DNA from: a virus
Lineage: Duplodnaviria > Heunggongvirae > Uroviricota > Caudoviricetes
Length of the DNA stretch: 64,000 bases
Direction: 5' to 3' (one strand)
IMG/VR virus record: IMGVR_UViG_3300042363_000209
Shown piece after piece: positions 5,869 through 60,936 of the stretch. Positions within the stretch are counted from its first letter, which is position 1; every line of letters starts with the position of its first letter. Both the position numbers and the translations under genes were made by a program. Below the pieces are notes generated by a model. It saw only the letters and a list, made by a program, of their open reading frames with translations. It ran no database searches and had not been told where the DNA came from.

Positions 5869-5897
5869 TTTAAAAAACAAAAATAAAAAATAAAGTT

Positions 5898-6242
5898 ATG
5901 TTAGTAGCTAAAATTAGTCCAAGTGCATCTTTCTCTGAAAAAGATGAGAACCCATTCAGTTCTGCAACAGTTGCATCATTTGATCACTTAGGAGTGATTG
6001 GTGTAAACTATATTCCAGGAAATGAAAAACATGAGTTTGTAGTTGTTTATGGCAACATCAAAAATGTAAATGATGTAGATTATTTACAGAGAGCTCCTCA
6101 ACGTACACAACTTGTGTTAACTGCTGCAGAAGTAGCTAACTGGGGTACAAACGATGAAGAGTTGTTTCAAATTGTTGCAGCTAAATTAGGAACATCTGTA
6201 GTGGAGTTCAAAGAAGTTAGCAATAACCTTAATGTATTGTAA
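5898..6242 (+). CDS. Hypothetical protein (114 aa), immediately downstream of the fiber gene
   Basis: Complete ORF with the same upstream context AAAATAAAGTTATG as the gene at 18928. No recognisable motif. Confidence 0.5.
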   Translation: MLVAKISPSASFSEKDENPFSSATVASFDHLGVIGVNYIPGNEKHEFVVVYGNIKNVNDVDYLQRAPQRTQLVLTAAEVANWGTNDEELFQIVAAKLGTSVVEFKEVSNNLNVL

Positions 6243-8372: not shown

Positions 8373-8794
8373 ATACGCTTGATTTTATCTAAACTGTCTT
8401 CAATAGAAGTGTTAGAAGTGTTAATAATTAAATCTACATTATCCATGTGAGGAACTTCAAAGTCTTTCACTTTAAAGTCATCTCTACCTCTATCTTCTTC
8501 ATAGATGAGATATATCCATTTGACATCTCTAGTTAGTTTATTAAGATGTTCTCTAGCTTCTTCATAAGGATACACTAGTGATAACACTATGTTATAGTTT
8601 TTAGCTTTATTTAAATAGTGTGCTATATCACTGGCTCTGTTTAAGTTCTTAATCCTACCTTCTCTACTGTAGTCTTTATTCTTAAACATATCTCTTAATT
8701 CATCACCATCTATGTGATGAAATCCCTCTGCTATAAATTTTTTAGCAAGGGTTGTTTTACCTGATGCAGGTTGACCAAATAATACTATTATCAT
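8357..8794 (-). CDS. Adenylylsulfate (APS) kinase-like P-loop kinase
   Basis: Walker A VLFGQPASGKTTLAKK, followed by IDGDELRDMF...SREGRIKNLNRASDIAHYL. This parallels CysC LDGDNVRHGL...EDRAENIRRVGEVAKLF. Confidence 0.6.
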   Translation of the reverse strand: MIIVLFGQPASGKTTLAKKFIAEGFHHIDGDELRDMFKNKDYSREGRIKNLNRASDIAHYLNKAKNYNIVLSLVYPYEEAREHLNKLTRDVKWIYLIYEEDRGRDDFKVKDFEVPHMDNVDLIINTSNTSIEDSLDKIKRICRIF

Positions 8795-11700
8795 AGTAAG
8801 TGTTTTATTTTATTAATTACTGTTTCTGCAGATATACCTTTATGACATTCAAATTGTCTGTCAGTTCCTTTATGTACAGGACACCAATCCCAATCACCTT
8901 TGTCAAACTTAAAGTTAGGATTGTTCCAACAACCATGACATAAGTTTGTATCTGTAATTCTTAAACAATTAGATTGAAACTCATGATCTGCTTCTGTAAA
9001 GTTACTAATCATTACAGTTTGCTTACCCATCATCCAAGCTAACCAGCTCAGTCCTGAGCTTAATCCTATAAAGAACTTACTATTCCAGATCATATTGATA
9101 GTGTTATCCATAGAAGTATCTTCTATCTGTGTACAGTTATCAAATGGATTTTTTTCTTTAGATACATTGTACACCTTGTATCCATGATCAACTAGATAGT
9201 TAATCAAAGCCTGCCAACCTTGCTTGGTCCAGAACTTACATCCTGATGTACTGTTTGTAGCAATAGTTACAAATGTATCTTTACCACTAAATTTAACTGG
9301 TTCATAAGCAAATCTAGGTCTAATCTCTTTCCATTCTAATCCTAGTATGTTAGTAGCTGCTTTCTGTAAAGGAATAGTGTTACACAACACAGGTTCTTTA
9401 TCTTTACCGTATCTCCAGCCAACAATGTACTGACCATGAATATTACCCACTACACTTCCTGGAGTGATAAACTCAAGCTCTGGATACGCTTTCTCAAACA
9501 AGAAATTCTTATATGTGCTCACTACAACATGACAGTTGTGTTTCTTTCTGAATTCATTGCAATACGGTATCCAGGCAATAGTATCACCTAATGATTGACT
9601 ATCTATACAGATGTATACACGCTTACCTTCATAGTTTAACGTTTCTTCAAAGATGAGTTCTCCATCTTCCCATACCATAGCTGTCCACTTGGTAAACCAT
9701 TGTCTATTTAACTTAACCCAACGGTTGCTAGTAATTGTATTTTCATAATGGCAAACCCCTTTCTCATCAAAGAATTTGATTAAGAAGTTACTATCACTGT
9801 TTCCTGTAATTTCTAAGGTGGGACTCTCTACAAATAACAAAGATATATTCACCTTTGTTTTCTTCTTTTTTCTAGGAACAATGGGTATATCAAGTGTTTT
9901 GTTATACAAGTGTAAATGATTTTGTGCAAATCTGTTATCTGGTATGTCATGAAAAACAACACCAACAGGATATTTTTCATTCACTTCATCTAAATCACTA
10001 TCTATAGGTAGGATGTATCTAGTAAACATATCTTCATACTGAGGAAGATTTCTAGCTACTACAGGAAGTGCATAGCTGATCGCTTCTCTAAGTACAAGAG
10101 GATTACATTCCCATGTGCTGTTAAACATGAATATGTCTGCAGCTTTTAAGAATATATCTACATCATTTCTCTCTCCCCATATCTTTACATTCTTTGGTAA
10201 GTTTTCCATCAACGGTTCCCAGTAGTCTTTAAAGTTGGGGGCTTGATTACCTACAAAATGGAAGTCCATACTAGGATATTTTCTAGCTATCTCTATTCCT
10301 TCTTTCTGATTCTTTCCTGGAGTCCACAGTCCTACGTTTACAACATTAGGTCTGTTCAGATTAAATCCTAACTCATCTTTAGCATCCACTTTATGTACAA
10401 TACTTGGTCTCTTATCTTCTATAGGGAATTCAATTACATCTTTATAAGCCTTCATGTTAGCAAATGTCTTATAATGATATGGTGTACAGAAAGCATAAGC
10501 TTCTGGTTCATACTTCTTAAGTTCGTCAGGATTAAACCAAACGTTATGACATGTCTCAACTATTCTCCAGGTTCTATCAGGAGCATACAATGCATCTAAT
10601 AACTGAGGGCTTATTTGATTAAAACTCTCAAACCCTTCTAACATTTCTTCTACATGTACAACATCAATGCTATTCTTTTTGATGATGTCAATGAGCTCCA
10701 TCTTGTTTTCTCCTAGTGTAAACATCCTGTTTTCAGGCAATAGCTTTTTGATTTCATTCTTCTGTACAACATACACAGGACTGAAGTCAGAGTACTCCAC
10801 TACATAAATTCGTACGAAATGTTGTAGTTCTTGCACTCTTTTTAGGAGGAAACCAGGCATACCACCTGTAGATAAGTGAGGAGCTAAGAACAATACACTT
10901 AGTTGTTTCTCTGCACTCTCTAGAGTTTGTATCATCTTATTCATCACCTTTGGATCTTTCTCTCCATGTAAGAATAATAACTTATGTTTATTATCTGGTA
11001 ATCTTGACCAGCTTCCGTGGTGCTTCCCCCACTCAAGCTTATCGTAGATGTCTTCTATTCTATCTAGGCTAGCATTGGTGTAGATGTAAGGTAGGCCATC
11101 TAACACTCCCCACTTCCACAATAACACGTTAGCTATTGTTTCTTCATGGTATGGAGCATACCACTCATGGTTAGCCATCACTTTAGGATGAGTACACATC
11201 CAGTACCACTCATCTAAGAAATCAAAGCAGTAATGGTTGGCTACAAAATAACCTGTTTGTCTATATCTCTGTCTAACATATTGATTGACACCAAACAATT
11301 CACATGCTGGTGCTTCTAATGTTGTAGACATATCTTCTCTAGTATCAGCCCCACCTCTACCATTGATGTGTAGATAGTCATAAATACCCTCTACAAAATA
11401 GGGATAGTTCATTTTAGGATACATATCAAAGATGCTATCAACATATTCTGTGGCTACACTATCAGAGTCTATATAAGCTACTGTATGAGCACAGTTTAAT
11501 AGAGCATCTTTAACAATCATTGGACGTTCTATCAACAGTCTATAAACATTCTTATCACTTCTATCAATGTATTTGTTGATAGAAAGCTTTGGTAGATTAG
11601 ACTTCCACATAATTGTTGTAGCACCAGGAATATCTGCAATAGTATCTAATAAATATACGTAGATGGGAAGCTCGCTATATCTTCTTATAGAAGCTACACA

Positions 11701-12288
11701 AGCTTTAACGGTAGGAACATAAGATGCATTTGCATATAAAACGTACGCTTTTTCAGCTTTTATATGCTTATTCGTATAATACCCATACAAATGATTACTG
11801 TAAAGTTCAACTAGCTGGGGGTATCTAGTCTTCATTACCCTGTGAGTTAGGTCTTCCTGGAGATGGGTTTCGTATGTATTACCATACTCTTCACCATCTT
11901 GAGCCATCATATATGGTACAGCCACTAAACATTCTTTGCCTGCATCTGTTATATCTGTAATAAGCTTCTGACCTTCTTCAGCTGTAAGATGTTCTAGTAT
12001 ATCTCCTAGGATGATGTAGTCATATTCTGACCAGTCAAACTCACGGATGTCTGCATTGTGTACTGTTCCGTACCAATCTTTCAGTTTGAATTCTTCAATG
12101 TAAGGGGCCCAAGCTTCAACAGCATCTATATCATAACCAATATCTTCTAAAAGCTTAGCATAAGTACCCTGTCCAGGACCAACATCTAATATCTTTTTAT
12201 GTGTAGGAACATGATGTTCAAAGTATTTCTTAATCTCAGGTTTGTAAAAAGTATAACTATTTGGCATAATGCTGGTTATTTTGAACAA
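8791..12288 (-). CDS. Giant multidomain decoration enzyme (1165 aa). N-terminal class-I SAM methyltransferase, followed by GT-A (GT8-like DxD), GT-B (GT4-like) and a C-terminal GT9-like domain.
   Basis: Four domain signatures in order: SAM motif I ILDVGPGQGTYAKLL; a DxD motif, AYIDSDSV; a GT-B region, FMFNSTWECNPLVLREAISYALPVVARN; and a C-terminal CHGCWNNP... segment with GT9-like layout. Confidence 0.55.
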   Translation of the reverse strand: MFKITSIMPNSYTFYKPEIKKYFEHHVPTHKKILDVGPGQGTYAKLLEDIGYDIDAVEAWAPYIEEFKLKDWYGTVHNADIREFDWSEYDYIILGDILEHLTAEEGQKLITDITDAGKECLVAVPYMMAQDGEEYGNTYETHLQEDLTHRVMKTRYPQLVELYSNHLYGYYTNKHIKAEKAYVLYANASYVPTVKACVASIRRYSELPIYVYLLDTIADIPGATTIMWKSNLPKLSINKYIDRSDKNVYRLLIERPMIVKDALLNCAHTVAYIDSDSVATEYVDSIFDMYPKMNYPYFVEGIYDYLHINGRGGADTREDMSTTLEAPACELFGVNQYVRQRYRQTGYFVANHYCFDFLDEWYWMCTHPKVMANHEWYAPYHEETIANVLLWKWGVLDGLPYIYTNASLDRIEDIYDKLEWGKHHGSWSRLPDNKHKLLFLHGEKDPKVMNKMIQTLESAEKQLSVLFLAPHLSTGGMPGFLLKRVQELQHFVRIYVVEYSDFSPVYVVQKNEIKKLLPENRMFTLGENKMELIDIIKKNSIDVVHVEEMLEGFESFNQISPQLLDALYAPDRTWRIVETCHNVWFNPDELKKYEPEAYAFCTPYHYKTFANMKAYKDVIEFPIEDKRPSIVHKVDAKDELGFNLNRPNVVNVGLWTPGKNQKEGIEIARKYPSMDFHFVGNQAPNFKDYWEPLMENLPKNVKIWGERNDVDIFLKAADIFMFNSTWECNPLVLREAISYALPVVARNLPQYEDMFTRYILPIDSDLDEVNEKYPVGVVFHDIPDNRFAQNHLHLYNKTLDIPIVPRKKKKTKVNISLLFVESPTLEITGNSDSNFLIKFFDEKGVCHYENTITSNRWVKLNRQWFTKWTAMVWEDGELIFEETLNYEGKRVYICIDSQSLGDTIAWIPYCNEFRKKHNCHVVVSTYKNFLFEKAYPELEFITPGSVVGNIHGQYIVGWRYGKDKEPVLCNTIPLQKAATNILGLEWKEIRPRFAYEPVKFSGKDTFVTIATNSTSGCKFWTKQGWQALINYLVDHGYKVYNVSKEKNPFDNCTQIEDTSMDNTINMIWNSKFFIGLSSGLSWLAWMMGKQTVMISNFTEADHEFQSNCLRITDTNLCHGCWNNPNFKFDKGDWDWCPVHKGTDRQFECHKGISAETVINKIKHLL

Positions 12289-12326
12289 AATTAGTATATT
12301 TGTTGTAAATAAACAACAAAATTTTT

Positions 12327-12695
12327 ATGCAAATAGAAGTAAGTATTGGGGAAGTTGTGGACAAATGGACCATCCTTTCCATCAAGGCTTTGAACATTAC
12401 AGACAAAGACAAACTTAAGAACGTTTTTGTTGAGAAAAACTACTTAAATACAGTGATTGACCCTGAAATTCTACACGATCCACTAGTAGATGATCTACTT
12501 AAGACAAACAAAGCTCTTTGGGATGTGGAAGACTTGCTCAGAGACTTTGAAAGAGCTGGTAGTTTTGGCCCAGAATTTGTTGATCTGGCTAGGTCAGTGT
12601 ACAAATTGAATGATAAAAGAGCACATATTAAAAAAGAAATTAATATCAAGTACTTCTCTGAGTTTGTAGAGGAGAAATCATACAACCCTTACTAA
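12327..12695 (+). CDS. Hypothetical protein (122 aa); first gene of the rightward block after a divergent AT-rich promoter gap
   Basis: Complete ORF with no motif. Confidence 0.45.
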   Translation: MQIEVSIGEVVDKWTILSIKALNITDKDKLKNVFVEKNYLNTVIDPEILHDPLVDDLLKTNKALWDVEDLLRDFERAGSFGPEFVDLARSVYKLNDKRAHIKKEINIKYFSEFVEEKSYNPY

Positions 12696-13564: not shown

Positions 13565-14156
13565 ACTACTTAGTGTTGTAATTGTTGTTTTACTAGCATT
13601 TATATTTTTTCAAAATGATGGGTGCACTTACATAGACAAAAAGTCTGAAATAGTAACTGTACATGACACTACTTGGCAGGTTCATGACTCATTGATTGTT
13701 AAGAAGATAAAGATCAAAGAGACAATACATGACACTATTGCCACTCCTCCAGAATATATAGCAGACACAAACTATTTAACTCTTAAGCTTCAGTATGAAG
13801 CGTTAGTATCAGATTTTTTAGCTAAGAATGTTTATGCTGACACAGTGAAGTTGGATACATTAGGTTATGTAGCTGTAGCTGATACAGTGTATAAAAATGA
13901 ATTACTAAATAGATCTTATAAATACAACTATAAGGTTCCTACAGTCACTGTAACAACCACCATTACTAAGTATGCTCCTAATAAAGGTGCTCTATTTATA
14001 GGGGGGGGTATTGCAAGTGATAGGAATAGTTTGAATATTTTACAAGGAGGGCTATTGTATAAATCTAAAAAAGATAAAATATTTGGATTAAATATTGGAA
14101 TCAACAATAATAGTCAAGTTATATATGGTTTTCAATCATATTGGAAAATTAAATAA
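13557..14156 (+). CDS. Secreted/exported hypothetical protein (signal peptide)
   Basis: N-terminal hydrophobic leader LLSVVIVVLLAFIFF. Confidence 0.45.
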   Translation: MNKLLSVVIVVLLAFIFFQNDGCTYIDKKSEIVTVHDTTWQVHDSLIVKKIKIKETIHDTIATPPEYIADTNYLTLKLQYEALVSDFLAKNVYADTVKLDTLGYVAVADTVYKNELLNRSYKYNYKVPTVTVTTTITKYAPNKGALFIGGGIASDRNSLNILQGGLLYKSKKDKIFGLNIGINNNSQVIYGFQSYWKIK

Positions 14157-21273: not shown

Positions 21274-21412
21274 AGAGTACTTCTCCTGCATCCCATAAGA
21301 ACTGCACGCTCAGGTTGTGGTAACCCATTCTAGACAGGGCCCCTTAAAGAAGTCATAAATTCCCCCCTTATAGTCTCAGTATTATAAGTCTGCTCCTTAT
21401 GGGAGTAAAAGA

Positions 21413-30175: not shown

Positions 30176-30490
30176 TTAATAATCTATTTCTTCAGGTTCC
30201 CACTTATATCCATATAAGAAATAATCTGGCCCCCCTATTTTACTTTTATACTTATCTTTTGATGTATAAGTACGTTTACTAACTAACTCATCTGGTGTCA
30301 ACACCATAAAGTCAATTCCATATTTAATTTTGACTGATTCGTTATCATCAATAGACTTCTGTACTTCAAAGTCACGTAGGTGAACTCTTCCTCCAAAGTC
30401 TGATTTTACTTTAATCTCTTTCATCTTTATCTTTTTTTGTTTTAATGTTATGGCATGCTTCACATAGCACTTGTAAGTTTTCTTGTTCAC
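30176..30490 (-). CDS. Hypothetical protein (104 aa)
   Basis: ORF. Confidence 0.35.
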   Translation of the reverse strand: MNKKTYKCYVKHAITLKQKKIKMKEIKVKSDFGGRVHLRDFEVQKSIDDNESVKIKYGIDFMVLTPDELVSKRTYTSKDKYKSKIGGPDYFLYGYKWEPEEIDY

Positions 30491-47973: not shown

Positions 47974-47999
47974 GTTGTGTTTTTTAATTGTTAATGTTG

Positions 48000-48410
48000 T
48001 GGAGGTGAGGGGAGTTGAACCCCTGTCCAGACAAGTGATAATAATACCATTCTTACATGCTTAGATCTGAAGCTGTTCATGTACATTTACTTAGAGCAAT
48101 TACAATGTATTACTACATAGTCCTAAGCACTTCTAATCAGTAGTTGGGATCGCAGGGTTTGCTATCTACCACCACTCTATTTTGACATAATAGAGAAAAC
48201 GCTTGTAACTTTCTGTTTCCAGGTTGTTACCACCCAGTTGACTAAGCAGCTAATGCTAACTCAGAAGCGAAAGCCATAGCAATAATGCTAGCACCTTCTT
48301 CAACACGCTCAGATTGACTCTTTACGGTTATTGTTTAGAACTTGTTTACCTGTTCCAAGGCTTGCATGTGATACTACCAGCCTCATGTCTGTCAAAGCCA
48401 GTACACCCCC
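48000..48410 (-). ncRNA. ssrA: tmRNA (ssrA), phage-encoded, about 410 nt
   Basis: The minus-strand RNA starts GGGGGUGUACUGGCUUUGACAG... (tmRNA 5' acceptor/D-analogue). It contains a tag reading frame ...GCU UUC GCU UCU GAG UUA GCA UUA GCU GCU UAG (…AFASELALAA-stop). It ends ...GGACAGGGGUUCAACUCCCCUCACCUCCA (T-arm plus acceptor 3' strand complementary to the 5' GGGGGUG). Confidence 0.85.
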
Positions 48411-48411
48411 A

Positions 48412-48609
48412 TTATGTATTTCTATCTAAAGATATATTCTTACAGAATCTGATTTCTTTATTACTCAATGTCCATATTTCACCATTATCCATGGCACAAG
48501 TAAATAGAAGATTATGCTCCTGGCTATAATCTATAACCAAGAAAGCATAACCTTCCATTCCATCAGAATATCTCATGATAGGTATCATTGGATTCAGTTG
48601 AAGAATCAT
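48412..48609 (-). CDS. Hypothetical protein (65 aa) abutting the tmRNA 5' end
   Basis: ORF. Confidence 0.3.
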   Translation of the reverse strand: MILQLNPMIPIMRYSDGMEGYAFLVIDYSQEHNLLFTCAMDNGEIWTLSNKEIRFCKNISLDRNT

Positions 48610-48720
48610 TCTTTTTCTTTTTAATTATGTTGCCATCTTTATCAATGAATGGAGCCCTATGAAATTCATAGGACATCCATACAATGACAGTTAGCATCAC
48701 AAAGATAACGATATATATCA

Positions 48721-48939
48721 TTATTTGTAGGATTTAAATCTGATAAATCTAGACTTTTCTTGTGTATACTCATTTGTAGGTGTATACATATATCTACCAT
48801 TCTTAATCTGTAATCTATTAGCAGCTGTTTTAGCTGAAGCATTACGATAGATGGATTCAATTAAGTTATCTGCACTAGGTACATAACTTAATACCTGAAT
48901 GTGTGCAAAGTCTTTACTTGATGCAATTAATGTTGCCAT
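48721..48939 (-). CDS. Hypothetical protein (72 aa)
   Basis: ORF. The alternative overlapping ORF 48666..48860 was judged less likely. Confidence 0.3.
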   Translation of the reverse strand: MATLIASSKDFAHIQVLSYVPSADNLIESIYRNASAKTAANRLQIKNGRYMYTPTNEYTQEKSRFIRFKSYK

Positions 48940-48944
48940 GGTTG

Positions 48945-50082: not shown

Positions 50083-50109
50083 AATTAAATTGATTAATAA
50101 TTAAATAAA

Positions 50110-50652
50110 TTAGTCTTCTGGTTCATCATCTGGATTATCATCCATCTCATCCCAATATTCATCATCATCAGGATATTCATTGTCATCTTGATCATATAAA
50201 TAGTCATCCTCATCCCATAATAGTCTAAGTGTTACCTTATCCATGTATAGCACTGGAACAGCTAAGCCATCTTCAAAGGCTAAGTCTTCTATTTCTATCT
50301 CAAGCTCACCATTATAATCTGATAGTATAAGATTGATGTCTTTGAGCTCTATGTCTCTGAGTTCATCTGTACCTGGTCCATCATCCCACCAACCTACCTC
50401 ATCAGGTGCTGCTAATGCAACAGCCTTTTCATCAGGATTAGCTGTATATGATACAACAACAGGCATAATAGGACAACCATTTATTTGTATATAAGCCTCT
50501 TGATCTTCTGGTGTGTGACCTAATAGAAATACTCTATCATATGTATATCTTTTACCATATATGGTGTCTGTAATTGTTTGTTTAAACCACATGCCTGGTT
50601 TTAGTTTTTCAGGCATATATGAGTCAAATGTTAGTTTTGCTTTTATGTACAT
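50110..50652 (-). CDS. Hypothetical protein with strongly acidic C-terminal tail (180 aa)
   Basis: C-terminus ...DQDDNEYPDDDEYWDEMDDNPDDEPED. Confidence 0.4.
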   Translation of the reverse strand: MYIKAKLTFDSYMPEKLKPGMWFKQTITDTIYGKRYTYDRVFLLGHTPEDQEAYIQINGCPIMPVVVSYTANPDEKAVALAAPDEVGWWDDGPGTDELRDIELKDINLILSDYNGELEIEIEDLAFEDGLAVPVLYMDKVTLRLLWDEDDYLYDQDDNEYPDDDEYWDEMDDNPDDEPED

Positions 50653-50672
50653 TTTTGTTTGTTTTTAATGTA

Positions 50673-51083
50673 TTATCTATATCTGTTATGATAGTCATAA
50701 CAAGAATAACATACTTTAGCTATATAATCTCCTTTTGCAGATGTATGTAGATAAAGTTCTGCTCTTCTGTCACCAAAGCTACCATCTAATGAATCACCAC
50801 ATTCTTCACAAATGTATTTCTCTTTAGAACCAAATGTAATAGTGTCATATGAAGACATATCTATCTCATCATGATTATCAAGAATTGGTTCTTGCCCTTC
50901 AGCAACTATGTCTGCTGGTAGATAACCAATACCATCTAATATATCCTGTAATGTTACAGTGAATACACCTTTGTCTGTTAATGACTCAAGTATGTCATGT
51001 CTGTTAAAGAACTCTTTGCATATATCATGGTCAAAATACCAATCAATAAATGATTGTTTATCAATCAATAAGGTTTTAGTCAT
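50673..51083 (-). CDS. Cys-rich zinc-finger protein (136 aa)
   Basis: CEECGD...CYSCYDYH. Confidence 0.4.
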   Translation of the reverse strand: MTKTLLIDKQSFIDWYFDHDICKEFFNRHDILESLTDKGVFTVTLQDILDGIGYLPADIVAEGQEPILDNHDEIDMSSYDTITFGSKEKYICEECGDSLDGSFGDRRAELYLHTSAKGDYIAKVCYSCYDYHNRYR

Positions 51084-51314
51084 ATAATTGTTTGTTTAAT
51101 GATGAAATAAATAAGGACCCAGCTAGGGGAAGCTGAGCCCTATATCTACCAACACACACATCTAAAATCCTAATAGTTCTAAATCTTGTGCGTTAGCCTC
51201 AATTGAGACTATTGTGTGTTTAATACTTTCTATTCTATATTTAAAGTTTGCTATCATTTTAAATATATAAAACTCTTGAGGTGTTAACTGTATTGTTTTC
51301 ATCTTATTGCTATA

Positions 51315-51584
51315 TTAATGTGAGTTTTTAGATAGGTTAAATCTAACCTTTGTGTCTTTAATTTGATCTAAACATTCGTCATAACCCTTAAAATAGTAAT
51401 ATGTTTCCACTCTACATATATAACTATCAATAAGTAAATAACCTCCAAAATATCCAATAACGGACATTAAAGAGATGAGTGCAAGCTTCTCATTACTGTA
51501 TTCAACAGCTAATGGAAAGAGTATGATTAACACTGTTGTAATCATAATCATAGCAATACCAAGGTACAATTCAAATTTTTTCAT
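51315..51584 (-). CDS. Small membrane protein (two TM)
   Basis: Hydrophobic segments IAMIMITTVLIILFPL and LISLMSVIGYFGGYLL. Confidence 0.35.
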   Translation of the reverse strand: MKKFELYLGIAMIMITTVLIILFPLAVEYSNEKLALISLMSVIGYFGGYLLIDSYICRVETYYYFKGYDECLDQIKDTKVRFNLSKNSH

Positions 51585-51846
51585 AAATAATGTGTGTTAA
51601 AAGATTGTGTAATAATGTGTTGTAAAGAATATAGATTTTGTGCCTCAATCTACAAAGCCTCTATTCAATGAAGTAGAACAGATAAACTCCTATATTATCT
51701 TTGCCATAGGTTAACTTTACCTACTACGCAACGCATTTGTTTTGGTGCATGATATTGTCTTTGTACACTGCATGATGATAGTAACATAACTATAACCATT
51801 GTAGCAAAGAACCATGCTAACATTGTTGGTACTTCTTTTTTCATAA

Positions 51847-52074
51847 CTAATTGATTTTAAATAGTTTAATAGAATCAAAGTCTTTTTCATCACCTGTCAT
51901 ATACAATATAGACATCATAATGAAATAGAATGCATAACATATAATGTATGGTGTAGAAGAAATAGCATCTTGGTATACAAATGCAAATCCAGATACTAAT
52001 AAGAAGAATAGGACAATTACATATGGTACTGTCCATAGAGCTAATAAGTTAGCAATGTGTTTGATTAAGTTCAT
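51847..52074 (-). CDS. Small membrane protein (two TM)
   Basis: Hydrophobic segments. Confidence 0.3.
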   Translation of the reverse strand: MNLIKHIANLLALWTVPYVIVLFFLLVSGFAFVYQDAISSTPYIICYAFYFIMMSILYMTGDEKDFDSIKLFKIN

Positions 52075-52168
52075 GTGTTGTTTATTAAATGATTGATTAA
52101 TAATGTGTTATATAATATATATCGCCTTTGGTACGCTAAAGGCTAATGACAGAGATATATATTATGTG

Positions 52169-52786
52169 TTATATTACAACTGTGTCTGATGTATTGATCT
52201 TTCTAAATAGATTATGAATGTTCATATCACTGTCAACAGTTCGTACATATATGTATTTGTGCTCATCAGTGTTTAATAGAACAACAGCAGCAAATGCATC
52301 TTCCCAATACTCCTGACCATATCTTAATGCAATAGAGTTTAAACCACCATAACTAGTGATTTCTCCATCTGAATTGGCACAAAATACCATTGTCTCTTGC
52401 ATCATTAGATTTGTAGAGGCAACAACATACTCTGGATGAAGTTCTTGTTCATAATCACGTTCATCAGTGATAACATCTGTGTGCTCCTCATAATCATAAT
52501 CAGGATAATCTATATCATCAGGATAGTCTATATCCTTTGGATCATCAGCATGATATGATAAGAAGGAAGCATTATAGTCTTTCCACTCCCAACAATCATT
52601 CTCCATATAAGGAGTTTTAATTGTATTAGAATAAAGACTAACAACAATGATGTCTTCACCATTGGTTAATTGTTCATTAACATCAGGCCAATTTCCATGA
52701 TGTACTTTTGTTTCGTTGGTTGTTCTGTTGATGATGTAATACATGTTTTTTCTATTTAATGCTATATATATTGTATTGAATAGCAT
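52169..52786 (-). CDS. Hypothetical protein (205 aa)
   Basis: ORF. Confidence 0.4.
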   Translation of the reverse strand: MLFNTIYIALNRKNMYYIINRTTNETKVHHGNWPDVNEQLTNGEDIIVVSLYSNTIKTPYMENDCWEWKDYNASFLSYHADDPKDIDYPDDIDYPDYDYEEHTDVITDERDYEQELHPEYVVASTNLMMQETMVFCANSDGEITSYGGLNSIALRYGQEYWEDAFAAVVLLNTDEHKYIYVRTVDSDMNIHNLFRKINTSDTVVI

Positions 52787-52944
52787 GATTAGTTAATAGT
52801 GATTTGGTATATGATTATCCTGTGAGGGTTACACACCTTCTCTTGTGTTCACAGATAAGTTATTGATTATTAGCAGTTTATTATGCTTGCTGTGCCTATT
52901 TCCCACAACCCCTAACCCCTACACCCACTTGTATATGTAATAAT

Positions 52945-52976
52945 GAAAGAGAGCACAATTTAATGCACTCTCTTTC
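52945..52976 (-). terminator. Hairpin immediately 3' of the 52987..53493 gene
   Basis: GAAAGAGAGCACA-atttaa-TGCACTCTCTTTC, a 12-13-bp stem. Confidence 0.35.
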
Positions 52977-52986
52977 ATATTAGTGA

Positions 52987-53493
52987 CTACCAAACATCAG
53001 ATACTGATGCAACATTACTCTTCGCAGGAGCAACAGGCATCTTAACCTTAACGCGAGAACCACCTTCTGGATTACTAATGATATACTTAACGACTTGTTC
53101 GCCTGTTTCATCACTAATCAAAGGTATTGTATTATCAATATCTTGGAAGATTGGTTGCTCTTGAATTGGATAGTTCAACATATCAGCAAGCTTGATAGAC
53201 TTGTTACGAAGCTTTGCACTCAATGGACGACTGAACCACAATAAACCGTAGTCAGATGTACCTTCATAATTAATTTTAAGAGTGACAGCTTGGTCAGTCT
53301 TAACATTCATTACAGGATAGTTAACATTATCACTCAATGATAATTCTTCGCTATCTACAAGATAGTCTTGTAATGTGCCTGCCAACACACGCTCTGTGGT
53401 GCCGTTAGTTTCAGGTGCATTTCTTCTGATGTTAAAAATTGCAGGCTTTTTAGCTACTGCTGTCTTTGCTGTTTTTGTTTGTGGCTGTGCCAT
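52987..53493 (-). CDS. Hypothetical protein (168 aa); first gene of the leftward block next to the control region
   Basis: ORF. Confidence 0.45.
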   Translation of the reverse strand: MAQPQTKTAKTAVAKKPAIFNIRRNAPETNGTTERVLAGTLQDYLVDSEELSLSDNVNYPVMNVKTDQAVTLKINYEGTSDYGLLWFSRPLSAKLRNKSIKLADMLNYPIQEQPIFQDIDNTIPLISDETGEQVVKYIISNPEGGSRVKVKMPVAPAKSNVASVSDVW

Positions 53494-54449
53494 AATGTGT
53501 TTTTGTTCAGATTGTGTTCTGTTCCCAATGTTTAATTGTGTCTTTGAGACCCCTGGGGGCTACCCCAATCGCTCAAATCACAGGAGGGGTCACCATGTGG
53601 AGTAGCCTCTCCTCCCATGGATAAGGGGGTTGTAACATCTAGAAAAAAATTTTGTAAAATAGTTCCACATGGAACCTTGGGTATAATCATCTGAGGACCA
53701 ATGGCTTAAGTGGCCCCTGTGTTAAATGTTCCATGGCCCCATGTTAAATGTTTGCATGAATTTTTCCAAATGTTTCATGCACCCATTTTTATACTTACAG
53801 TATAAATTGCACCCATAAATTAAACTTTGCCCCCATTTTTCGTAACAAATAACTATATAAATATGTTACAAGAGTGTCACAGTTTTTCAAATATTTGTGA
53901 CACACTTCCAGGTTTGGCTGTGTTTCACTTCCTGATTTGGCAAGTTATAACAAGTCTATATTCTGCCAAAAGTCAAGCTATGGCTTTACCCATCTTACGT
54001 TTTGTCAAGCTATAGCTTTACATATTGTTCACATTTTCCTTCTGTTCACGTATTCGTGAACAAGCTTTGTTTGTGAACATAATGTGTCTTATAAGGGATA
54101 TGCTCAGCTTAACAATGTTGCTTTTATAACACATTATGGTATGTTATGGTGTATAGTGATGGAATGTTCCACCAAAATTATAAACTCCTGTTGTATCAAA
54201 ACTATAATATTTTGCAAGTTTTGATAATAGGTGAAAATAAATTTGGTAGTTTCAAAATAGTCTTCGTAACTTTGGGGGGGATTTAGGGGGGGCCCTAAGT
54301 ACATCTAATCAGCTAATACACTATCTACAATTTATTGGTAGAATATAATGGATTATAAAAATAGTGCATAATATAGCATTCCTATTCCAGATAACTAAAA
54401 TAGTTATTTGACAATCAAAGGAATATACATACCTTTGCTTTAACTAATT
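53494..54449. promoter_or_regulatory. ~950-bp non-coding divergent control region (candidate promoters, operators, possible origin)
   Basis: No ORF of 60 aa or more. Contains, in order: GC-rich blocks at 53551..53640; TATAAT at 53682..53687; direct repeats GTTAAATGTT x2 and GCACCCAT-like x3 at 53717..53835; inverted repeat GTGTCACA-N14-TGTGACAC at 53874..53903; nested TGTTCAC/GTGAACA palindromic array at 54026..54079; and two G7 runs at 54274..54292. Confidence 0.6.
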
Positions 54450-54812
54450 ATGGAACCAACAAACAACAAGAAGCTAATTGTTCAGAAAATGAAGAGACCA
54501 GTGGGGGATTCCTACGCTGTGGCTGAGAAGTATTACAATATACTGTCAGCTGTGAATGGTCTTGGATTGACAGAACGTGAGGTGCAATTGATTGCTTTCA
54601 CAGCCATCAAAGGTAACATCTCCTATGCCAATGTTCGTCAAGAGTTCTGTGAGAAGTACAAAAGCTCGCCCCCAACCATCAACAACATCATCTCCAAACT
54701 TAAACGTATTGGTGTATTTGTCAAGGACGGTACCAAGGTGAAGGTCAACCCAGTCATCATCCTAGACTTTGAGAAAGACATTGTCTTACAAATAACTGTA
54801 AGTCATGGATAA
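54450..54812 (+). CDS. Hypothetical early protein, possible HTH regulator (120 aa)
   Basis: First ORF of the rightward block. LTEREVQLIAF resembles an HTH segment. Weak. Confidence 0.35.
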   Translation: MEPTNNKKLIVQKMKRPVGDSYAVAEKYYNILSAVNGLGLTEREVQLIAFTAIKGNISYANVRQEFCEKYKSSPPTINNIISKLKRIGVFVKDGTKVKVNPVIILDFEKDIVLQITVSHG

Positions 54813-55993: not shown

Positions 55994-56312
55994 AAAAACT
56001 ACATATATAAACACAGAGCTTGAATGGGCAGAAGCACAGCTTGTTTCCTGGAAAGCTTATGTAAATGCAAACCCACTACATGAATTGAAAGATAGAATTG
56101 AGTGGAAGCCTACAGCTAAAGGAGGAATGTTACCTATGGTAATAGCTAGTATTGAAGCTCAGGGTAAGTTTGTACAGGAGACAATGAAGAACTACCTTGC
56201 TCTAGTAGAAGTGGTAGATAAGCTAAGAAACATGGAAGAAGCTAAGGTGGAAGTGAGAGGAAAGGGTGAGTTGTCAGGAGCTGCTGCTGAGTTTTTAGCA
56301 AATAGAAAATAA
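55980..56312 (+). CDS. Hypothetical protein; terminase small-subunit candidate by position
   Basis: 110-aa ORF immediately upstream of and coupled to the large terminase. No motif. Confidence 0.3.
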   Translation: MATIKKTTYINTELEWAEAQLVSWKAYVNANPLHELKDRIEWKPTAKGGMLPMVIASIEAQGKFVQETMKNYLALVEVVDKLRNMEEAKVEVRGKGELSGAAAEFLANRK

Positions 56313-58354
56313 TGATTGAACTACAAAACATAGATTACAAAGATTGGTTCATAAATCAGAAACGTATTCCTGATAAGGAATCTGCTGAATGTAAACCGTT
56401 CTTTGATTTCCATAGAGAATTATGTTTAAATGGTGCTATGATGGGGGGTGTGTATATCAACCCCTTTTTATATTGGCACCTAAATATATGGCACACTGAG
56501 GTGGATGTCATAGATGATAGAGGAAGAATTGCACAAAAATATGCTAATCCGTTTTTAAGAGATAATGAGTGGCTGGTAACAAACGAAATTGATAGAGCCC
56601 AACAGGAAAAAAAGGGCTTGGTTATTCTAGGTATTAGACGTTTTGCTAAATCCGTTCTTGAAGCATCCTATATTGCATGGGGTGCAACATTTGATGAGAA
56701 CTCCCAGAATATTATTGCTGGTTTGAATGCACCAGATATAAAACTTATTACGGATAAAATAGATAAAGGATTAAACTTTATCCCTGAGTATTGGAGATGG
56801 CAGAGAATTGAGGATAACTGGAAAAACCAGGTCACATTAGGTATTAAAACCAAATCTGGTGAACGTATCCCATTCTCTTCCATTCTGATACGTAACCTTG
56901 ATGAAGGTAATAATGAAGAAGCAATTGCAGGTACAAAACCACGTAAATTAATTATAGATGAGATTGGTAAAGGAAATTTTCTTAGAGGTTTACAGGCGGC
57001 TATACCAGGTTTCACTACACCCTATGGTTGGGGATGTTCTCCAATTCTCACAGGCACTGGTGGTGATATGAAGAAATTTCAGGATGCAAAATCCCTGATG
57101 TTTGACGTAGACAACTTTAATTTCCTTACATATAATAATGCAAAAGATGATAAGCGTATACATGGCTTATTCATCCCAGCTAAATATAGAATGGAAGCTA
57201 AAGAGAAATCTACATTAGGAGCTTTCTTAAATGAGCCTACTGGATCAGACTTATATAACGTTGAAATGTTAGTGGGTGATGAGGAAAGAGCTAAAGAGAT
57301 TACAGAGAAGAACCTAGAAAGACTTAAAAAGGCTGGAGATAGAATTGCTTATTTGAAGGAGAAGATGTACTACCCAATGGAGGTGGATGATATCTTCTTG
57401 AATGAGGATACAAACATCTTTGATATTGAATCAGCTAAGAGACAGAAAACCAGACTGTTACAACAAGAAAGAACAGGAACTCCTGTTACATTGTTCTCTG
57501 GAGAAAATGGTATTGAGCATGAGTTTACAGACAAGCTTCCTATATCTAACTTTCCATTAAAGAACAGTGATACAAAAGATGCTCCTATAGTTATATATGA
57601 ATTCCCTGTAGAAAACCCTCCTTATGGATTGTATGTAGCAGGAGTTGACCCTTATAGACAAGGTAAGTCTGTGTATTCAAGTTCACTTGGTTCTGTATTC
57701 ATATATAAAAGAATGCATGAAATTAGTGGTGAGAAGTATCAAGATATGTTCGTAGCTTCGTATTGTGCAAGACCTGATAAGAAAGAGATTTGGGAAGAAC
57801 AAGCTAGACTTCTTATTAAGTATTACAATGCAAGAACACTGTGTGAGAATGATGATATATCATTTATAGAATATATGAAGGCCAAAGGGGATGCTCACTA
57901 TTTAGAGAAACAACCTGAATGGCTTAAAGAAATTGTTCCAAACACAACAGTTAAAAGAGATTATGGAATTCATCGTTCAAGTGACAAAATAATTGAGTAT
58001 CTTCACACCTGCTTAAAGAAGTATATGGAGTCTGTGATATTCAAAGAAACAAATGAGGCTGGTGATACTATAAGAGAAGTTCTAGGGGTGAGTAAGATAT
58101 TTGATCCTGTATTGCTTGAAGAGATTATACAATACAATGATTCAGGTAACTTTGATAGAATCATTGCTGCAGAGTTAGCCATTGCACAAGCATTAAAGAT
58201 GGACCCTATTATGGGTAAGATTGGTGGAACATCTGATGATAGAGTGAAGGCAATGTTTAGTAAGAAGAAAGGAAACGTACTGTTTACAGAATCAAGAGGT
58301 GGGATGTTTGGAACCTCTCATAATAAATATAAAAGAAATAAATTGTTTACATAA
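56312..58354 (+). CDS. terL: Terminase large subunit
   Basis: ATPase Walker-A-like LVILGIRRFAKSVLE, Walker B KLIIDEIG, and C-terminal RNaseH-like nuclease segment LYVAGVDPYRQGKS. 680 aa. Followed by the portal gene. Confidence 0.7.
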   Translation: MIELQNIDYKDWFINQKRIPDKESAECKPFFDFHRELCLNGAMMGGVYINPFLYWHLNIWHTEVDVIDDRGRIAQKYANPFLRDNEWLVTNEIDRAQQEKKGLVILGIRRFAKSVLEASYIAWGATFDENSQNIIAGLNAPDIKLITDKIDKGLNFIPEYWRWQRIEDNWKNQVTLGIKTKSGERIPFSSILIRNLDEGNNEEAIAGTKPRKLIIDEIGKGNFLRGLQAAIPGFTTPYGWGCSPILTGTGGDMKKFQDAKSLMFDVDNFNFLTYNNAKDDKRIHGLFIPAKYRMEAKEKSTLGAFLNEPTGSDLYNVEMLVGDEERAKEITEKNLERLKKAGDRIAYLKEKMYYPMEVDDIFLNEDTNIFDIESAKRQKTRLLQQERTGTPVTLFSGENGIEHEFTDKLPISNFPLKNSDTKDAPIVIYEFPVENPPYGLYVAGVDPYRQGKSVYSSSLGSVFIYKRMHEISGEKYQDMFVASYCARPDKKEIWEEQARLLIKYYNARTLCENDDISFIEYMKAKGDAHYLEKQPEWLKEIVPNTTVKRDYGIHRSSDKIIEYLHTCLKKYMESVIFKETNEAGDTIREVLGVSKIFDPVLLEEIIQYNDSGNFDRIIAAELAIAQALKMDPIMGKIGGTSDDRVKAMFSKKKGNVLFTESRGGMFGTSHNKYKRNKLFT

Positions 58355-60936
58355 TGGCAATTATAAGATATACAAAAGACGCAACAATTAGGTATGCCTA
58401 TTTAAACATCTTCCCTGATCAGTTTAAAACTGAGAAGGAAAAGATGGATGAGAGTTGGATAAAGAATACAATGGACTACTTTGCAAACAAAGCTTACGCT
58501 GAGTATGTAAAGAACCGTGATACGTTTGTTAAGAACTACGATCTTGTTAAGGGTATTTTAAGACATGAGGATTTTTACCAAGAACCTGAGGTGAGAAGTT
58601 TTACAGATATGCTAACAGCTGATTTACAGCTTCCTGCATATGTAAAACATTATTCTATAATGACAACACCTATTAATGAATTAGTAGGTGAGATTTCTAA
58701 ACGTCCAGATGCTTTCCGTGTGAAGGCATTTGATGATGATAGTAAGTCTGAAGAGCTTGAATTTAAAACAAGTATATTACAAGATTATGTAATTAATCAA
58801 GCTCAGTCTAAAATACAAGAACAAGCTGATTTAAAAGGAGAAGAAATCTCTGACGAAGACTTGCAAAAAATGACAATGGAGGATGTAAAAGATCAACTTG
58901 ATTCTTATACATCTGTTGCAGAGAAGTGGGCTAATCATGTATTAACAGCTCAGAAAGCTGAGTTTATTTTAAAAGAAAAAAGTGAAGATGCGTTTAGAGA
59001 TTTATTAATTTCTTCTAGAGAGTTCTATCATGTATATGAAGATAACTCAAAAGTTGGATTTAATATTGAGGTGGCTAACCCTAAGAATACATTCTTCTTA
59101 ACTACACCAGATAGAAAATATATTTCAGATCCTTCAGGACGTGCACAAGGAGCATATGCTGCTGGTACAGTTATGGTGATGGAACTATCTGAGATTATTG
59201 AAACGTTCCCTGATATCACTAAAGAAGAGATTGATCACTTACGTAGTTCATTACAAGACTATGGTTTGATTAACGTACGTGAATCTAATCTAGGTAATCC
59301 TAATGCTATTCCAGGTATTGATTCAGTACAATATGATACATATGATCCATTAGTGTTACAAACAAGAATGGTAATTGAGTCTGAAATGAAAGAGAACAAT
59401 GATGGCTTACAAGACTTCTTAGGTCTTACATCTAATGTTAGTTCATTTGGTTACAAGTATGTTGTTGTACGTACATATTGGATTTCTAAAAAGAAGATTG
59501 GTAAATTAATTTACTTAGATGAGTTAGGTAATGAGCAATCTTTACTAGTAGATGAAAACTACAAATCTGGAACTATTCCTACACAACAATCGTTAGAGTG
59601 GGGATGGATTAATGAATGGTACCAAGGAGTTAAGATTGGTCCAGACATCTATCATATTAAACCATATAAATTACTTCCTTATTGTCCTATCATTGGATTA
59701 GTACATGAAGTTAAGAATACAGAAGCTAGAAGCTTGGTAGATATGATGAAACCTTTTCAGGTTCTTTATAACGTTTGTATGAATCAATTATACAAGCTGT
59801 TAGAAAAAGAAGTTGGTAAGGTGTATTTAACATCTATTAGACATATTCCTATTCCTAAAGATGGAGATGCTCAAGATGCTCTTGATGTATGGGAAATGGA
59901 AGCACGTAACCGTGGTGTAATGTTTATTGATGACTCTCCAGAAAATTTGAAGAGCCCATCATCATTTAACCAGTTCCGTGATATTGATCTTACACGTACG
60001 CAAGAGATCCAATCTAGATATACACTAGCTCAACAATTAAAGAATGAGTGTTGGGAATTGATAGGTATGTCTAGACAACGTATGGGATCTATTTCAGCTA
60101 GTGAATCAGCTACAGGTACTAACACTGCTATTACACAATCATATTCTCAAACTGAGCCTATATTTGTTGCACATGAATACGTATTAGGTCAGCTTTATCA
60201 AGCTATAATTGATGCATCACTATATGTAGAAGCTAAAAAACCTGAGTCAACTATTTCATATATTACTAACGAAGGAGAATCTGCATTTGTACAAGTGAAT
60301 GGTACAGATCTTAAGTTCCGTGATCTTAAAGTGTATTTAACTAATAGACCAGAAGATCAGAAAATGTTTAATGAAATTAGAGGCTTATCTCAAGCTGTTT
60401 TACAAAACGGTGGTTCATTACATGATATCATTGAGCTTTACAGCACTAACTCTGTACGTCAGATGAAGAAGGTGTTTAAGACACTTAAAGATCGTCAAGA
60501 TCAAATGCAAGATCAACAAATGCAACAAAAGCAACAAGAACTTGAGCAACAGCAACAGCAATCTATGGCAGCTATTGAAAGTGCTAAACAAATGCAAGCT
60601 GAAAAAATAGCTCATGATGATTATCAAAATGCATTAGACAGAATTAATAAGAAAGAAATTGCTATTATTTCTGCTGAATCTAAAGGGGGATTACCAGATA
60701 CAGACATAAATGGAGTTCCTGATGCTTTAGAAGTTGATAAATTAATGCGTGAACAAACAAAAGCTGCTAATGATTATCAATTAAAAATGAACGATATTCA
60801 ATCTAAAAATACATTAGCTTTACAAAAACTTGAAGTAGAAAAAGAAAAGTTAAAAGTATCTAGAGAGAATCAAGCAAATGATTTAGCTATTGCTAAAGAG
60901 AATGCTAAAGGTAGGGCGAACAAGAAAACTAAATAG
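58354..60936 (+). CDS. Putative portal protein (860 aa) with Gln-rich coiled-coil C-terminus
   Basis: Position immediately after terL with a TAATG overlap. Size. No diagnostic motif visible by eye. Confidence 0.45.
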   Translation: MAIIRYTKDATIRYAYLNIFPDQFKTEKEKMDESWIKNTMDYFANKAYAEYVKNRDTFVKNYDLVKGILRHEDFYQEPEVRSFTDMLTADLQLPAYVKHYSIMTTPINELVGEISKRPDAFRVKAFDDDSKSEELEFKTSILQDYVINQAQSKIQEQADLKGEEISDEDLQKMTMEDVKDQLDSYTSVAEKWANHVLTAQKAEFILKEKSEDAFRDLLISSREFYHVYEDNSKVGFNIEVANPKNTFFLTTPDRKYISDPSGRAQGAYAAGTVMVMELSEIIETFPDITKEEIDHLRSSLQDYGLINVRESNLGNPNAIPGIDSVQYDTYDPLVLQTRMVIESEMKENNDGLQDFLGLTSNVSSFGYKYVVVRTYWISKKKIGKLIYLDELGNEQSLLVDENYKSGTIPTQQSLEWGWINEWYQGVKIGPDIYHIKPYKLLPYCPIIGLVHEVKNTEARSLVDMMKPFQVLYNVCMNQLYKLLEKEVGKVYLTSIRHIPIPKDGDAQDALDVWEMEARNRGVMFIDDSPENLKSPSSFNQFRDIDLTRTQEIQSRYTLAQQLKNECWELIGMSRQRMGSISASESATGTNTAITQSYSQTEPIFVAHEYVLGQLYQAIIDASLYVEAKKPESTISYITNEGESAFVQVNGTDLKFRDLKVYLTNRPEDQKMFNEIRGLSQAVLQNGGSLHDIIELYSTNSVRQMKKVFKTLKDRQDQMQDQQMQQKQQELEQQQQQSMAAIESAKQMQAEKIAHDDYQNALDRINKKEIAIISAESKGGLPDTDINGVPDALEVDKLMREQTKAANDYQLKMNDIQSKNTLALQKLEVEKEKLKVSRENQANDLAIAKENAKGRANKKTK

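Follow-up and report, generated by a model that had tools for sequence, protein, structure and literature searches.

Lambda-type immunity regions combine back-to-back transcription units with palindromic sites and an adjacent gene for a small DNA-binding protein, and in the promoter/stem-loop cassettes of the T4 hyperplastic regions conserved regulatory blocks flank small genes that are rapidly exchanged. Phage N4 serves as a further model, in which the promoter of the virion RNA polymerase is a short G:C stem with a 3-nt loop, located just upstream of the early genes. For crAss-related phages of the kind treated here, neither an origin nor an early promoter nor a regulatory circuit has, to our knowledge, been mapped. 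The middle promoters of the Cellulophaga phage phi14:2 carry a tripartite motif and are used by the host RNA polymerase (bioRxiv 10.1101/2020.03.07.982082). The present analysis concerns a 956-nt region (53494-54449) of the virus record IMGVR_UViG_3300042363_000209, of which a stretch of 64,000 nt (the window) was analyzed. It is located between leftward replication genes and rightward packaging genes and is probably the divergent transcription-control region of an uncultured crAss-related phage of about 114 kb, whose host uses Bacteroidota-type promoters.

The gene content of both flanks agrees with the original prediction, which had been made without database searches and stated that the region separates a leftward replication block from a rightward block. 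On the left, all genes are encoded on the minus strand and comprise a DNA polymerase, a DnaB-like helicase, a second helicase, a primase, a ribonucleotide reductase, rIIA/B and a ParB-like gene. On the right, a 120-aa winged-helix protein is followed by an HU/IHF-like protein (the 54805 gene), four small open reading frames (ORFs), TerL (56312-58354) and the portal gene (58354-60936). TerL and portal match crAss-type PHROG families; the closest cultured TerL is that of Leptolyngbya phage Lbo-JY46 (40% identity), followed by those of Cellulophaga and gut crAss-like phages. No ORF of at least 80 aa is present in the region in any frame, but it is not the only long non-coding stretch, as had been supposed, since 47974-48944 (971 nt) is equally ORF-free. 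The short ORFs inside the region sit in blocks conserved at the DNA level, with an A-run and an adjacent spacer of variable length and no three-base periodicity; these features ruled out a 52-aa ORF on the minus strand (53532-53690) as a small protein.

The 120-aa protein recovered 154 related places in IMG/VR, 80 of which were fetched for comparison (L001-L080). Protein identity is only 62-78% in most of these loci, yet stretches of the non-coding DNA upstream of the gene align at 80-100%. The order of the blocks is kept: block A, an A7T4G tract, the palindrome Op, module B, modules C1 and C2, 23-nt repeats, two D4 palindromes, a TGTTCAC array and module E, then promoter P_F, the G box, the invariant CATAATATAGCA motif, promoter P_G and the ATG of the 120-aa gene. 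The distance from block A to this ATG ranges from 257 to 1221 nt, and the smallest relatives (L078-L080, with a 313-nt gap) have kept only block A, the A/T tract, P_F, a G box, CATAATATAGCA and P_G. Since these keep the ends and lack the middle, the alignments identify the two ends of the region as its core and the repeat-rich middle (about 53655-54230, ~580 bp) as variable. Presence, copy number and order of the middle modules differ between relatives, and they are entirely absent from L078-L080. The repeats GTTAAATGTT and GCACCCAT, the inverted repeat at 53874 and the nested TGTTCAC array all belong to the variable part; the GC-rich island and the G runs belong to the conserved core. The A7T4G tract GAAAAAAATTTTG (53642-53654, plus strand) is universal according to alignment and module map, and in minimal relatives (e.g. 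L080) it is found directly upstream of the -33 element of P_F, the position of an UP element. Mobile or repeated elements were rejected as an explanation of the modules, of which only chance 12-13-mers occur elsewhere in the window.

Both promoters of the core point rightward and are of the Bacteroidota sigma-A type. P_F (54242-54274, plus strand) consists of a -33 element TTTG (54242-54245), a 21-nt spacer and the -7 box TAACTTTG (54267-54274), and P_G (54407-54437, plus strand) of TTTG (54407-54410), a 19-nt spacer and the -7 box TACCTTTG (54430-54437). As the -7 box spans -12 to -5 in Flavobacterium (PMC9723704), the starts, 5 nt beyond the box, are predicted at ~54279 and ~54442, the latter yielding a predicted leader of 8 nt before the ATG at 54450. 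Both conform to the sigma-A pattern TAnnTTTG with TTTG/TTG 19-21 nt upstream, and resemble promoters of this class also in the A/T-rich upstream tract and in short leaders that lack a Shine-Dalgarno sequence. The arrangement TTTG-N17-23-TAnnTTTG occurs 14 times in the window (4.5 expected), three of them inside the region and all rightward, and other genes of the window show the same TAnnTTTG box 10-40 nt before their starts. A P_G -7 box lies within 50 nt of the ATG in 56/56 distinct relatives, usually ending 12 nt before it, and is preceded by TTG in 55/56. In P_F, which is conserved in 52-60 of 64 relatives, both boxes are kept and the spacer is freely variable. P_F further aligns with a promoter class that is repeated eight times in Lbo-JY46. 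With these two promoters in essentially all relatives and the winged-helix and HU-like genes adjacent, the divergent control region proposed originally holds up well, and so does the promoter/operator hub of the same proposal; an iteron-type origin, offered there as an addition or alternative, finds no support in the comparison. The phi14:2 middle promoters are alike as host-polymerase promoters with an extra upstream block that stand before IHF-like and packaging genes in crAss-like phages; no sequence similarity between phi14:2 and the region was found.

Directly after the -7 box of P_F stands the G box (G7-ATTTA-G7, then CCC; 54274-54292, plus strand, i.e. non-template), which covers about -5 to +14 of this promoter. 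Its G7 runs occupy 54274-54280 and 54286-54292, and the last G of the -7 box is the first G of the G box. The twin G-run pattern is unique in the window (0.01 expected), its G4Hunter value of +2.2 is the top score of the window, and, read as GGG-G-GGG-ATTTA-GGG-G-GGG, it provides four tracts of at least 3 G with loops of 1-7 nt. Four G-tracts occupy this position in all 38 distinct sequences, in the form of twin G7 runs with 4-7-nt A/T spacers or of the GGGTGGAGGGTGGGG type, with alternative forms such as GGGTGGAGGGTGGG(G), GGGTGTGTGGGTGGGG, GGGCGGTGGGTGGG and GCTGGGTGGGTGGG when aligned at the -7 box. The canonical G3x4 motif is found in 17/38, and the remainder, bar one, carry four tracts of G2-4 with short loops; the lone exception (L074/L076) is explained by a misplaced anchor, the true -7 box being situated further on and followed by GCGGGTGGGTGGG. 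Random 32-mers of the same loci meet these two definitions at 0.07% and 0.3%, respectively. Across the 12-kb loci, G4Hunter values of at least 1.5 are nearly confined to this junction and to the sense strand of each divergent unit: the plus strand has 84 such scoring windows in the 1 kb before the gene, the minus strand has 18 further to the left, and 6 lie elsewhere.

As the tracts are kept while loops and overall design change, selection appears to act on the geometry of the G-tracts and not on a sequence that is read by a protein. The earlier suggestion that the twin G runs could form a G-quadruplex is thus strengthened, at the level of sequence, by the four G-tracts that every relative retains despite sequence change. 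A 19-nt G-tract box directly after the -7 box is outside the Bacteroidota sigma-A consensus. An ordinary feature of the promoter class was rejected as an explanation, because P_G and the eight Lbo-JY46 promoters do without such a box, which makes it a separate element and not a polymerase preference. In an RNA from the predicted start, the first run would be reduced to two G's and followed by the second run, which leaves too few tracts for a quadruplex of RNA alone; any selected quadruplex would therefore form on the non-template DNA or as a DNA:RNA hybrid. Judged by the alignments, the G-tract motif at the promoter is the most robust and most unusual feature of the region.

A second canonical G-quadruplex motif, GGGTGTAGGGGTTAGGGGTTGTGGG (G3-N4-G4-N3-G4-N4-G3; G4Hunter -2.08), is located at 52902-52926 on the minus strand, which is the sense strand for the genes that run leftward. 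Ahead of it come a terminator-like hairpin (~52932-52975), which belongs to the first leftward gene, and a TATA-like box; this arrangement of hairpin, box and G-quadruplex motif recurs in L002, L003, L019, L028 and L057.

At the opposite end of the region, block A (53550-53629) forms the GC-rich core element. A profile built from 36 homologues hits 53555-53629 (E 6e-18), the single copy in the window. The GC-rich motifs CCCCTGGGGGCTACCCC (53550-53566), GGAGGGGTCACC (53583-53594) and CTCTCCTCCC (53607-53616) lie within it, and it consists of a GGGGG-CTA-CCCC hairpin, AAC, GGAGGGGT, a GGAG-N6-CTCC hairpin and the pyrimidine tract CCTCCCAT. Across relatives the first of these parts is a G:C hairpin whose loop measures 3-4 nt, AAC does not vary, and GGGGT, another short hairpin and a CCTCCCCTCCCAT tract complete the element. 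Block A is present in 73/80 loci and always in one orientation; it is missing from 7 loci, whose upstream sequence is shorter than 430 nt, which makes 73/73 where enough sequence is available. In Lbo-JY46 and phi14:2, block A was not detected. Its distance to the first leftward start codon is 56-58 nt in the window and 21-63 nt in most relatives, and the first leftward gene itself differs, with several apparently unrelated families of ~130 aa (different N-terminal sequences). The ~3 kb to the left of block A (50100-53493 and the counterparts in L001-L080) are a mosaic of small genes, each present in 1-13/80 loci. As variable genes stand beside a constant element, block A marks the boundary of a hypervariable cassette, and the interpretation that suits it best is an upstream control region for the leftward unit. 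The mosaic itself looks like a hyperplastic early or anti-defence region. In the window, its first gene (52987-53493, minus strand) encodes a 168-aa protein that has no family match; a search for its relatives in IMG/VR found none, and one relative is present among the 80 loci.

The N4 promoter hairpin described above offers one way in which block A may work. Relatives keep the GGGGG-CTA-CCCC element (53555-53566), with variants of the loop, at ~20-60 nt from the first leftward gene, and the virion polymerase of crAss-like phages works on denatured DNA. Within the window, no gene for a virion RNA polymerase was found, and a hairpin-recognizing virion polymerase (N4-like) acting at block A is a lead only. 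The plus-strand ORF at 280-5868 was considered as such a polymerase and rejected; it is a collagen-like tail fibre.

The middle of the region contains most of the repeats and palindromes listed in the original prediction, and all of its motifs are present at the positions it gave. The region has 11 perfect inverted repeats (arm of at least 7, loop 3-30), compared with 2.6 +/- 1.6 (maximum 9) in 300 dinucleotide shuffles; this is the highest count among all 956-nt tiles of the window. Direct 9-mer pairs within 60 nt number 7, with 0.54 expected. The modules begin with Op (GTTCC-ACAT-GGAAC, 53662-53675), followed on the plus strand by the direct repeat CCCyrTGTTAAATGTT (family D7, 53715-53752; two copies 22 nt apart, seen as GTTAAATGTT at 53721 and 53743). 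Module B (TGCATGAA-N13-TTCATGCA, 53753-53781) is a palindrome conserved in ~19 loci. TGCMCCCAT direct repeats (family D5, 53778-53840, plus strand) occur in three copies with a spacing of 30 and 20 nt, noted before as GCACCCATTTTTA, GCACCCATAAATT and GCCCCCATTTTT at 53779, 53809 and 53829. Then come the palindromes C1 (GTAACA-N16-TGTTAC, 53842-53869) and C2 (GTGTCACA-N14-TGTGACAC, 53874-53903, denoted as I13), whose order is swapped in L001-L004, L009 and L019, and the tandem 23-nt repeat TGTGACACACTTCCAGGTTTGGC / TGTGTTTCACTTCCTGATTTGGC (family D1, 53896-53941, plus strand). D4 comprises two operator-like 18-bp near-palindromes, GTCAAG-N6-CTTTAC, located 32 nt apart (53972-53989 and 54004-54021). 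The nested array TGTTCAC-N10-TGTTCAC-GTATTC-GTGAACA-N10-GTGAACA (54026-54079) offers four half-sites; it is a 54-bp lineage-specific insertion between D4 and E, found among the sequences examined only in the window, L001 and L057, and its inner 20 bp score as terminator-like. Module E (54078-54138) has GTCyTTATAArGGAC sites that together form 18-nt inverted arms (I1). A further palindrome, ATAACTA-N3-TAGTTAT, lies in 54391-54437 and overlaps the -33 element of P_G.

These palindromes behave like protein operators and fit dimeric DNA-binding proteins, not RNA stems, as far as their pattern of change allows to judge. This reading follows from conserved half-sites, variable spacers and copies that are direct repeats of a palindromic site. 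In D4 the half-sites GTCAAG/CTTTAC are kept while the central 6 nt vary (21 distinct loci). In module E a change in one arm is not compensated in the other, and in L030, L071, L075 and L025 its two copies are direct repeats of one palindromic site; a long RNA hairpin was rejected for this module on both grounds. As in lambda-type immunity regions, back-to-back units, palindromic sites and an adjacent gene for a small DNA-binding protein occur together. The present region differs in having at least six types of palindrome and modules that vary in number and order, and neither a repressor/Cro pair nor an integrase was seen. Similarity to the T4 cassettes consists in conserved regulatory blocks that flank rapidly exchanged small genes.

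The first rightward gene (54450-54812, plus strand) encodes the 120-aa winged-helix protein, a candidate for binding to the palindromes. A large public metagenome protein collection contains 2281 homologues of this protein, some of which are labelled MarR-type by the source databases. Among 50,697 phage records the protein has no match, and neither does the DNA of the region. An AlphaFold2 model (pLDDT 73) shows four helices and a beta wing, and the best Foldseek match is the N-terminal domain of T4 MotA (E 4e-3), followed by MarR/Fur/ArsR.

Taken together, P_F and P_G are predicted to drive the operon of the winged-helix, HU-like and small genes, TerL and portal. The palindromes would serve as operators for regulators of the phage, i.e. 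the winged-helix protein, the HU-like protein and a ParB-type protein at the parS-like site Op, and these may time the switch between leftward replication/early genes and rightward packaging genes. Block A would hold the promoter or regulatory region of the leftward unit, of a non-sigma-A type and possibly recognized as DNA hairpins. The G box is supposed to act at the DNA level, as RNA from ~54279 has only part of the motif: whenever P_F fires, a non-template G-quadruplex would form or an RNA:DNA hybrid would be favored, and the resulting structure would modulate the output of the late operon.

Several observations weigh against a control region of this kind. Both start sites are predicted from the consensus. 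No canonical leftward promoter was found in the region: there is no sigma-A box on the leftward strand near block A, and TAnnTTTG occurs on the minus strand only at 54173-54180 and 54197-54204, in both cases with no -33 element at the proper spacing. A generic sigma-70 scan is not enriched (7 hits, 5.2 expected), which is expected for a Bacteroidota host and lends no positive support; a generic terminator scan of the region showed no enrichment either. The fold match of the 120-aa protein is weak, as Foldseek gave nothing at E <=0.001. Finally, the conservation of block A (80 nt, E 6e-18) exceeds that of a typical promoter, and an origin or a packaging signal would explain it too.

An origin primed by transcription is an unlikely alternative but accounts for many of the same features. 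Here, firing of P_F would cause the G-rich strand to fold, or the RNA to stay on the C-rich template, so that an R-loop in the AT-rich 54293-54450, stabilized by the G-quadruplex, would give a leading-strand primer; block A and the minus-strand motif at 52902-52926 could serve the opposite direction. The mitochondrial LSP-CSBII, ori(uvsY)/ori(34) of T4 and RNA II of ColE1 are alike in combining a promoter, non-template G clusters and AT-rich DNA, and human CSBII likewise has a pair of G runs with a short spacer. The promoter, the G clusters (-5 to +14) and the AT-rich downstream DNA are universally conserved, and the layout of promoter, G-rich non-template segment and visibly AT-rich 54293-54450 is present in the window. 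That the same promoter class does without a G box elsewhere, that G-rich boxes on the sense strand flank the divergence point on both sides, and that the replication genes begin here fit such an origin as well. However, in the known R-loop origins the G tracts are located at least 100 nt downstream, whereas here they straddle the start site and P_F reads into ordinary genes; in many relatives the gene that follows it encodes a small membrane protein, the position expected of an ordinary mRNA promoter. Neither an initiator gene nor DnaA boxes nor an iteron array were found. The cumulative GC skew, which the original prediction had proposed as a check, does reach its minimum at 53-54 kb, but the skew is negative over every minus-strand block and positive over plus-strand blocks and flips at all four changes of orientation. 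As the skew follows gene orientation, the minimum can be accounted for by the direction of transcription.

An iteron-type origin is not supported by the sequence. In place of at least 3-4 direct repeats of ~17-22 bp from one family, the region has families of 2-3 copies each; the repeat-rich middle is absent from the minimal relatives, the skew carries no independent signal, and no Rep/initiator family is represented among the flanking proteins. Inspection by eye for DnaA boxes gave only TTATCCATG on the minus strand of block A, where the sequence differs in relatives.

A parS-consensus site, which is present here in some relatives, is a further point in favor of the transcription-primed origin. 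Chromosomal parS is TGTTNCACGTGAAACA, and bacterial parS sites are usually situated near origins. Op is a degenerate parS-like palindrome that matches 13/16 of TGTTNCACGTGNAACA, which is chance-level on its own, but several relatives reach 15-16/16 at the same position, and all parS hits with <=2 mismatches in 834 kb of loci (22/22) are upstream of the 120-aa gene. The ParB-like gene ~4 kb to the left (the 48945 gene) adds to the resemblance to chromosomal parS systems, from which the locus differs in the degenerate Op copy of the window and in a phage ParB-like protein whose match to the ParB N-terminal domain stays below the threshold and which has no recognizable parS-binding helix-turn-helix. 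If an R-loop origin were indeed located here, it would be a bacterial-virus counterpart of mitochondrial LSP-CSBII priming.

It is improbable that block A and/or the palindromic middle represent structured RNA genes like the intergenic RNAs of phi14:2, whose intergenic regions are highly transcribed (bioRxiv 10.1101/2020.03.07.982082). The strong nucleotide conservation without coding potential and the hairpin-forming segments, with minimum free energy (MFE) z-scores near -2.5 (for block A -2.5 on the plus and -2.0 on the minus strand), would be in line with such genes. The tests for RNA structure speak against them: Rfam gives nothing real at the gathering score and, at E <=10, only two chance-level snoRNA hits (E 4-5, 17 bits vs 90-100 needed), the RNAalifold consensus amounts to -3.7 kcal/mol with 7 pairs, one of them compensatory, and a mutual-information scan of 63 unique sequences detected no Watson-Crick covarying pairs. 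The MFE folds of single homologues disagree, and neither strand folds clearly better than the other; after RNAalifold, this per-sequence folding of both strands and the mutual-information scan, block A was rejected as a structured RNA. The uncompensated arms and direct copies of module E argue in the same direction. Furthermore, at least one intergenic RNA of phi14:2 is a tmRNA gene, and the counterpart in the window lies ~6 kb away, inside the ORF-free stretch 47974-48944 (47997-48410, minus strand; Rfam RF00023, 88 bits; ARAGORN tag peptide ...ASELALAA). In phi14:2 (NC_021806), ARAGORN places the tmRNA at 4031-4500 (plus strand) in a 1.7-kb non-coding stretch between g004 and g006, and one abundant 'long non-coding RNA' of the 2020 preprint is probably this tmRNA. 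The parallel with the long non-coding RNAs of phi14:2 is weakened by this tmRNA inside one of the regions and by the lack of sequence similarity.

A packaging signal or genome terminus (pac/cos or a terminal-repeat boundary) before the terminase operon, comparable to cos in lambda, is very improbable, because the location directly upstream of the winged-helix, HU/IHF-like and TerL genes and the excess of contig ends within 6 kb upstream of the gene (34/80, 13 of them within 1 kb, vs 4 within 6 kb downstream) are offset by ends at many scattered positions instead of a fixed one, by an interior location of the gene in most near-full-length contigs (104-118 kb), by hypervariable leftward genes, G7 runs and palindromes that explain the breaks via strain heterogeneity and sequencing trouble, and by the Lbo-JY46 record being merely linearized at its first ORF. 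An exact-pattern scan of IMG/VR for terminal repeats matched one contig only and is hence uninformative. The DNA upstream of the 120-aa gene is a hotspot of assembly breaks, and the L006 contig starts inside the twin G7 runs.

The control region is of interest beyond the single phage, as the clade is abundant (judged by the 2281 metagenomic homologues of the adjacent gene) and the proposal has testable parts: two host-type promoters, candidate operators and their binders, a universal GC-rich block, and a promoter start inside a G-quadruplex motif. The preservation of the G-tract motif through complete sequence turnover is unusually clean comparative evidence for selection on geometry, not on a specific sequence, in a bacterial virus. 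Either an R-loop origin or a G-quadruplex switch on the late operon would, if true, represent a new phage regulatory device and an engineering handle.

Some further observations concern the surroundings of the promoters. The invariant motif upstream of P_G is GCATAATATAGCAT in the window (54366-54379, plus strand), with a single exact occurrence ~70 nt before the P_G start; it is conserved in 54/56 distinct relatives. Many relatives (e.g. L043 at 5671-5916 and L008 at 5652-5921) have an ORF for a predicted membrane protein of 81-89 aa between G box and P_G; its final codons, stop codon included, overlap with the invariant GATGCATAATATAGCA motif. In the window the motif is kept and the ORF is lost, so that P_F and P_G stand in tandem there. 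The P_F spacers of L025, L036, L037, L043, L062 and L078 often contain an inverted repeat (seen by eye; the spacer of the window is without it), whose arms differ among relatives and stay complementary (GGTAAT/ATTACC, GGGTAT/ATACCC, AGCTATT/AATAGC, CATAT/ATATG).

In Lbo-JY46 (PP438436, 1-8500), the eight promoters are perfect Bacteroidota-type promoters of the form TTTGGTAGTTT...TATCTTTG, several of them before tRNA clusters, and a non-coding stretch of ~990 nt is found at the equivalent divergent junction. This phage was reported on a cyanobacterium, and the Bacteroidota promoter type seems odd for the stated host. Elsewhere in the window, a 39-nt gap between the divergent genes 8791-12267 (minus strand) and 12327-12695 (plus strand) contains back-to-back TAnnTTTG boxes (12286-12302), a compact contrast to the 956-nt junction. 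The repeats of the tail-fibre ORF (1862 aa) give many spurious matches to short palindromes, e.g. parS. Other runs of G6-G8 directly after TATA/ATAA-like sequences on the local sense strand are located at 13990-14008 (plus strand), 21362-21367 and 30230-30235 (both minus strand). Runs of at least 5 G are on the sense strand in 19/24 cases in the window, which may reflect a second type of start site or a mere compositional bias.

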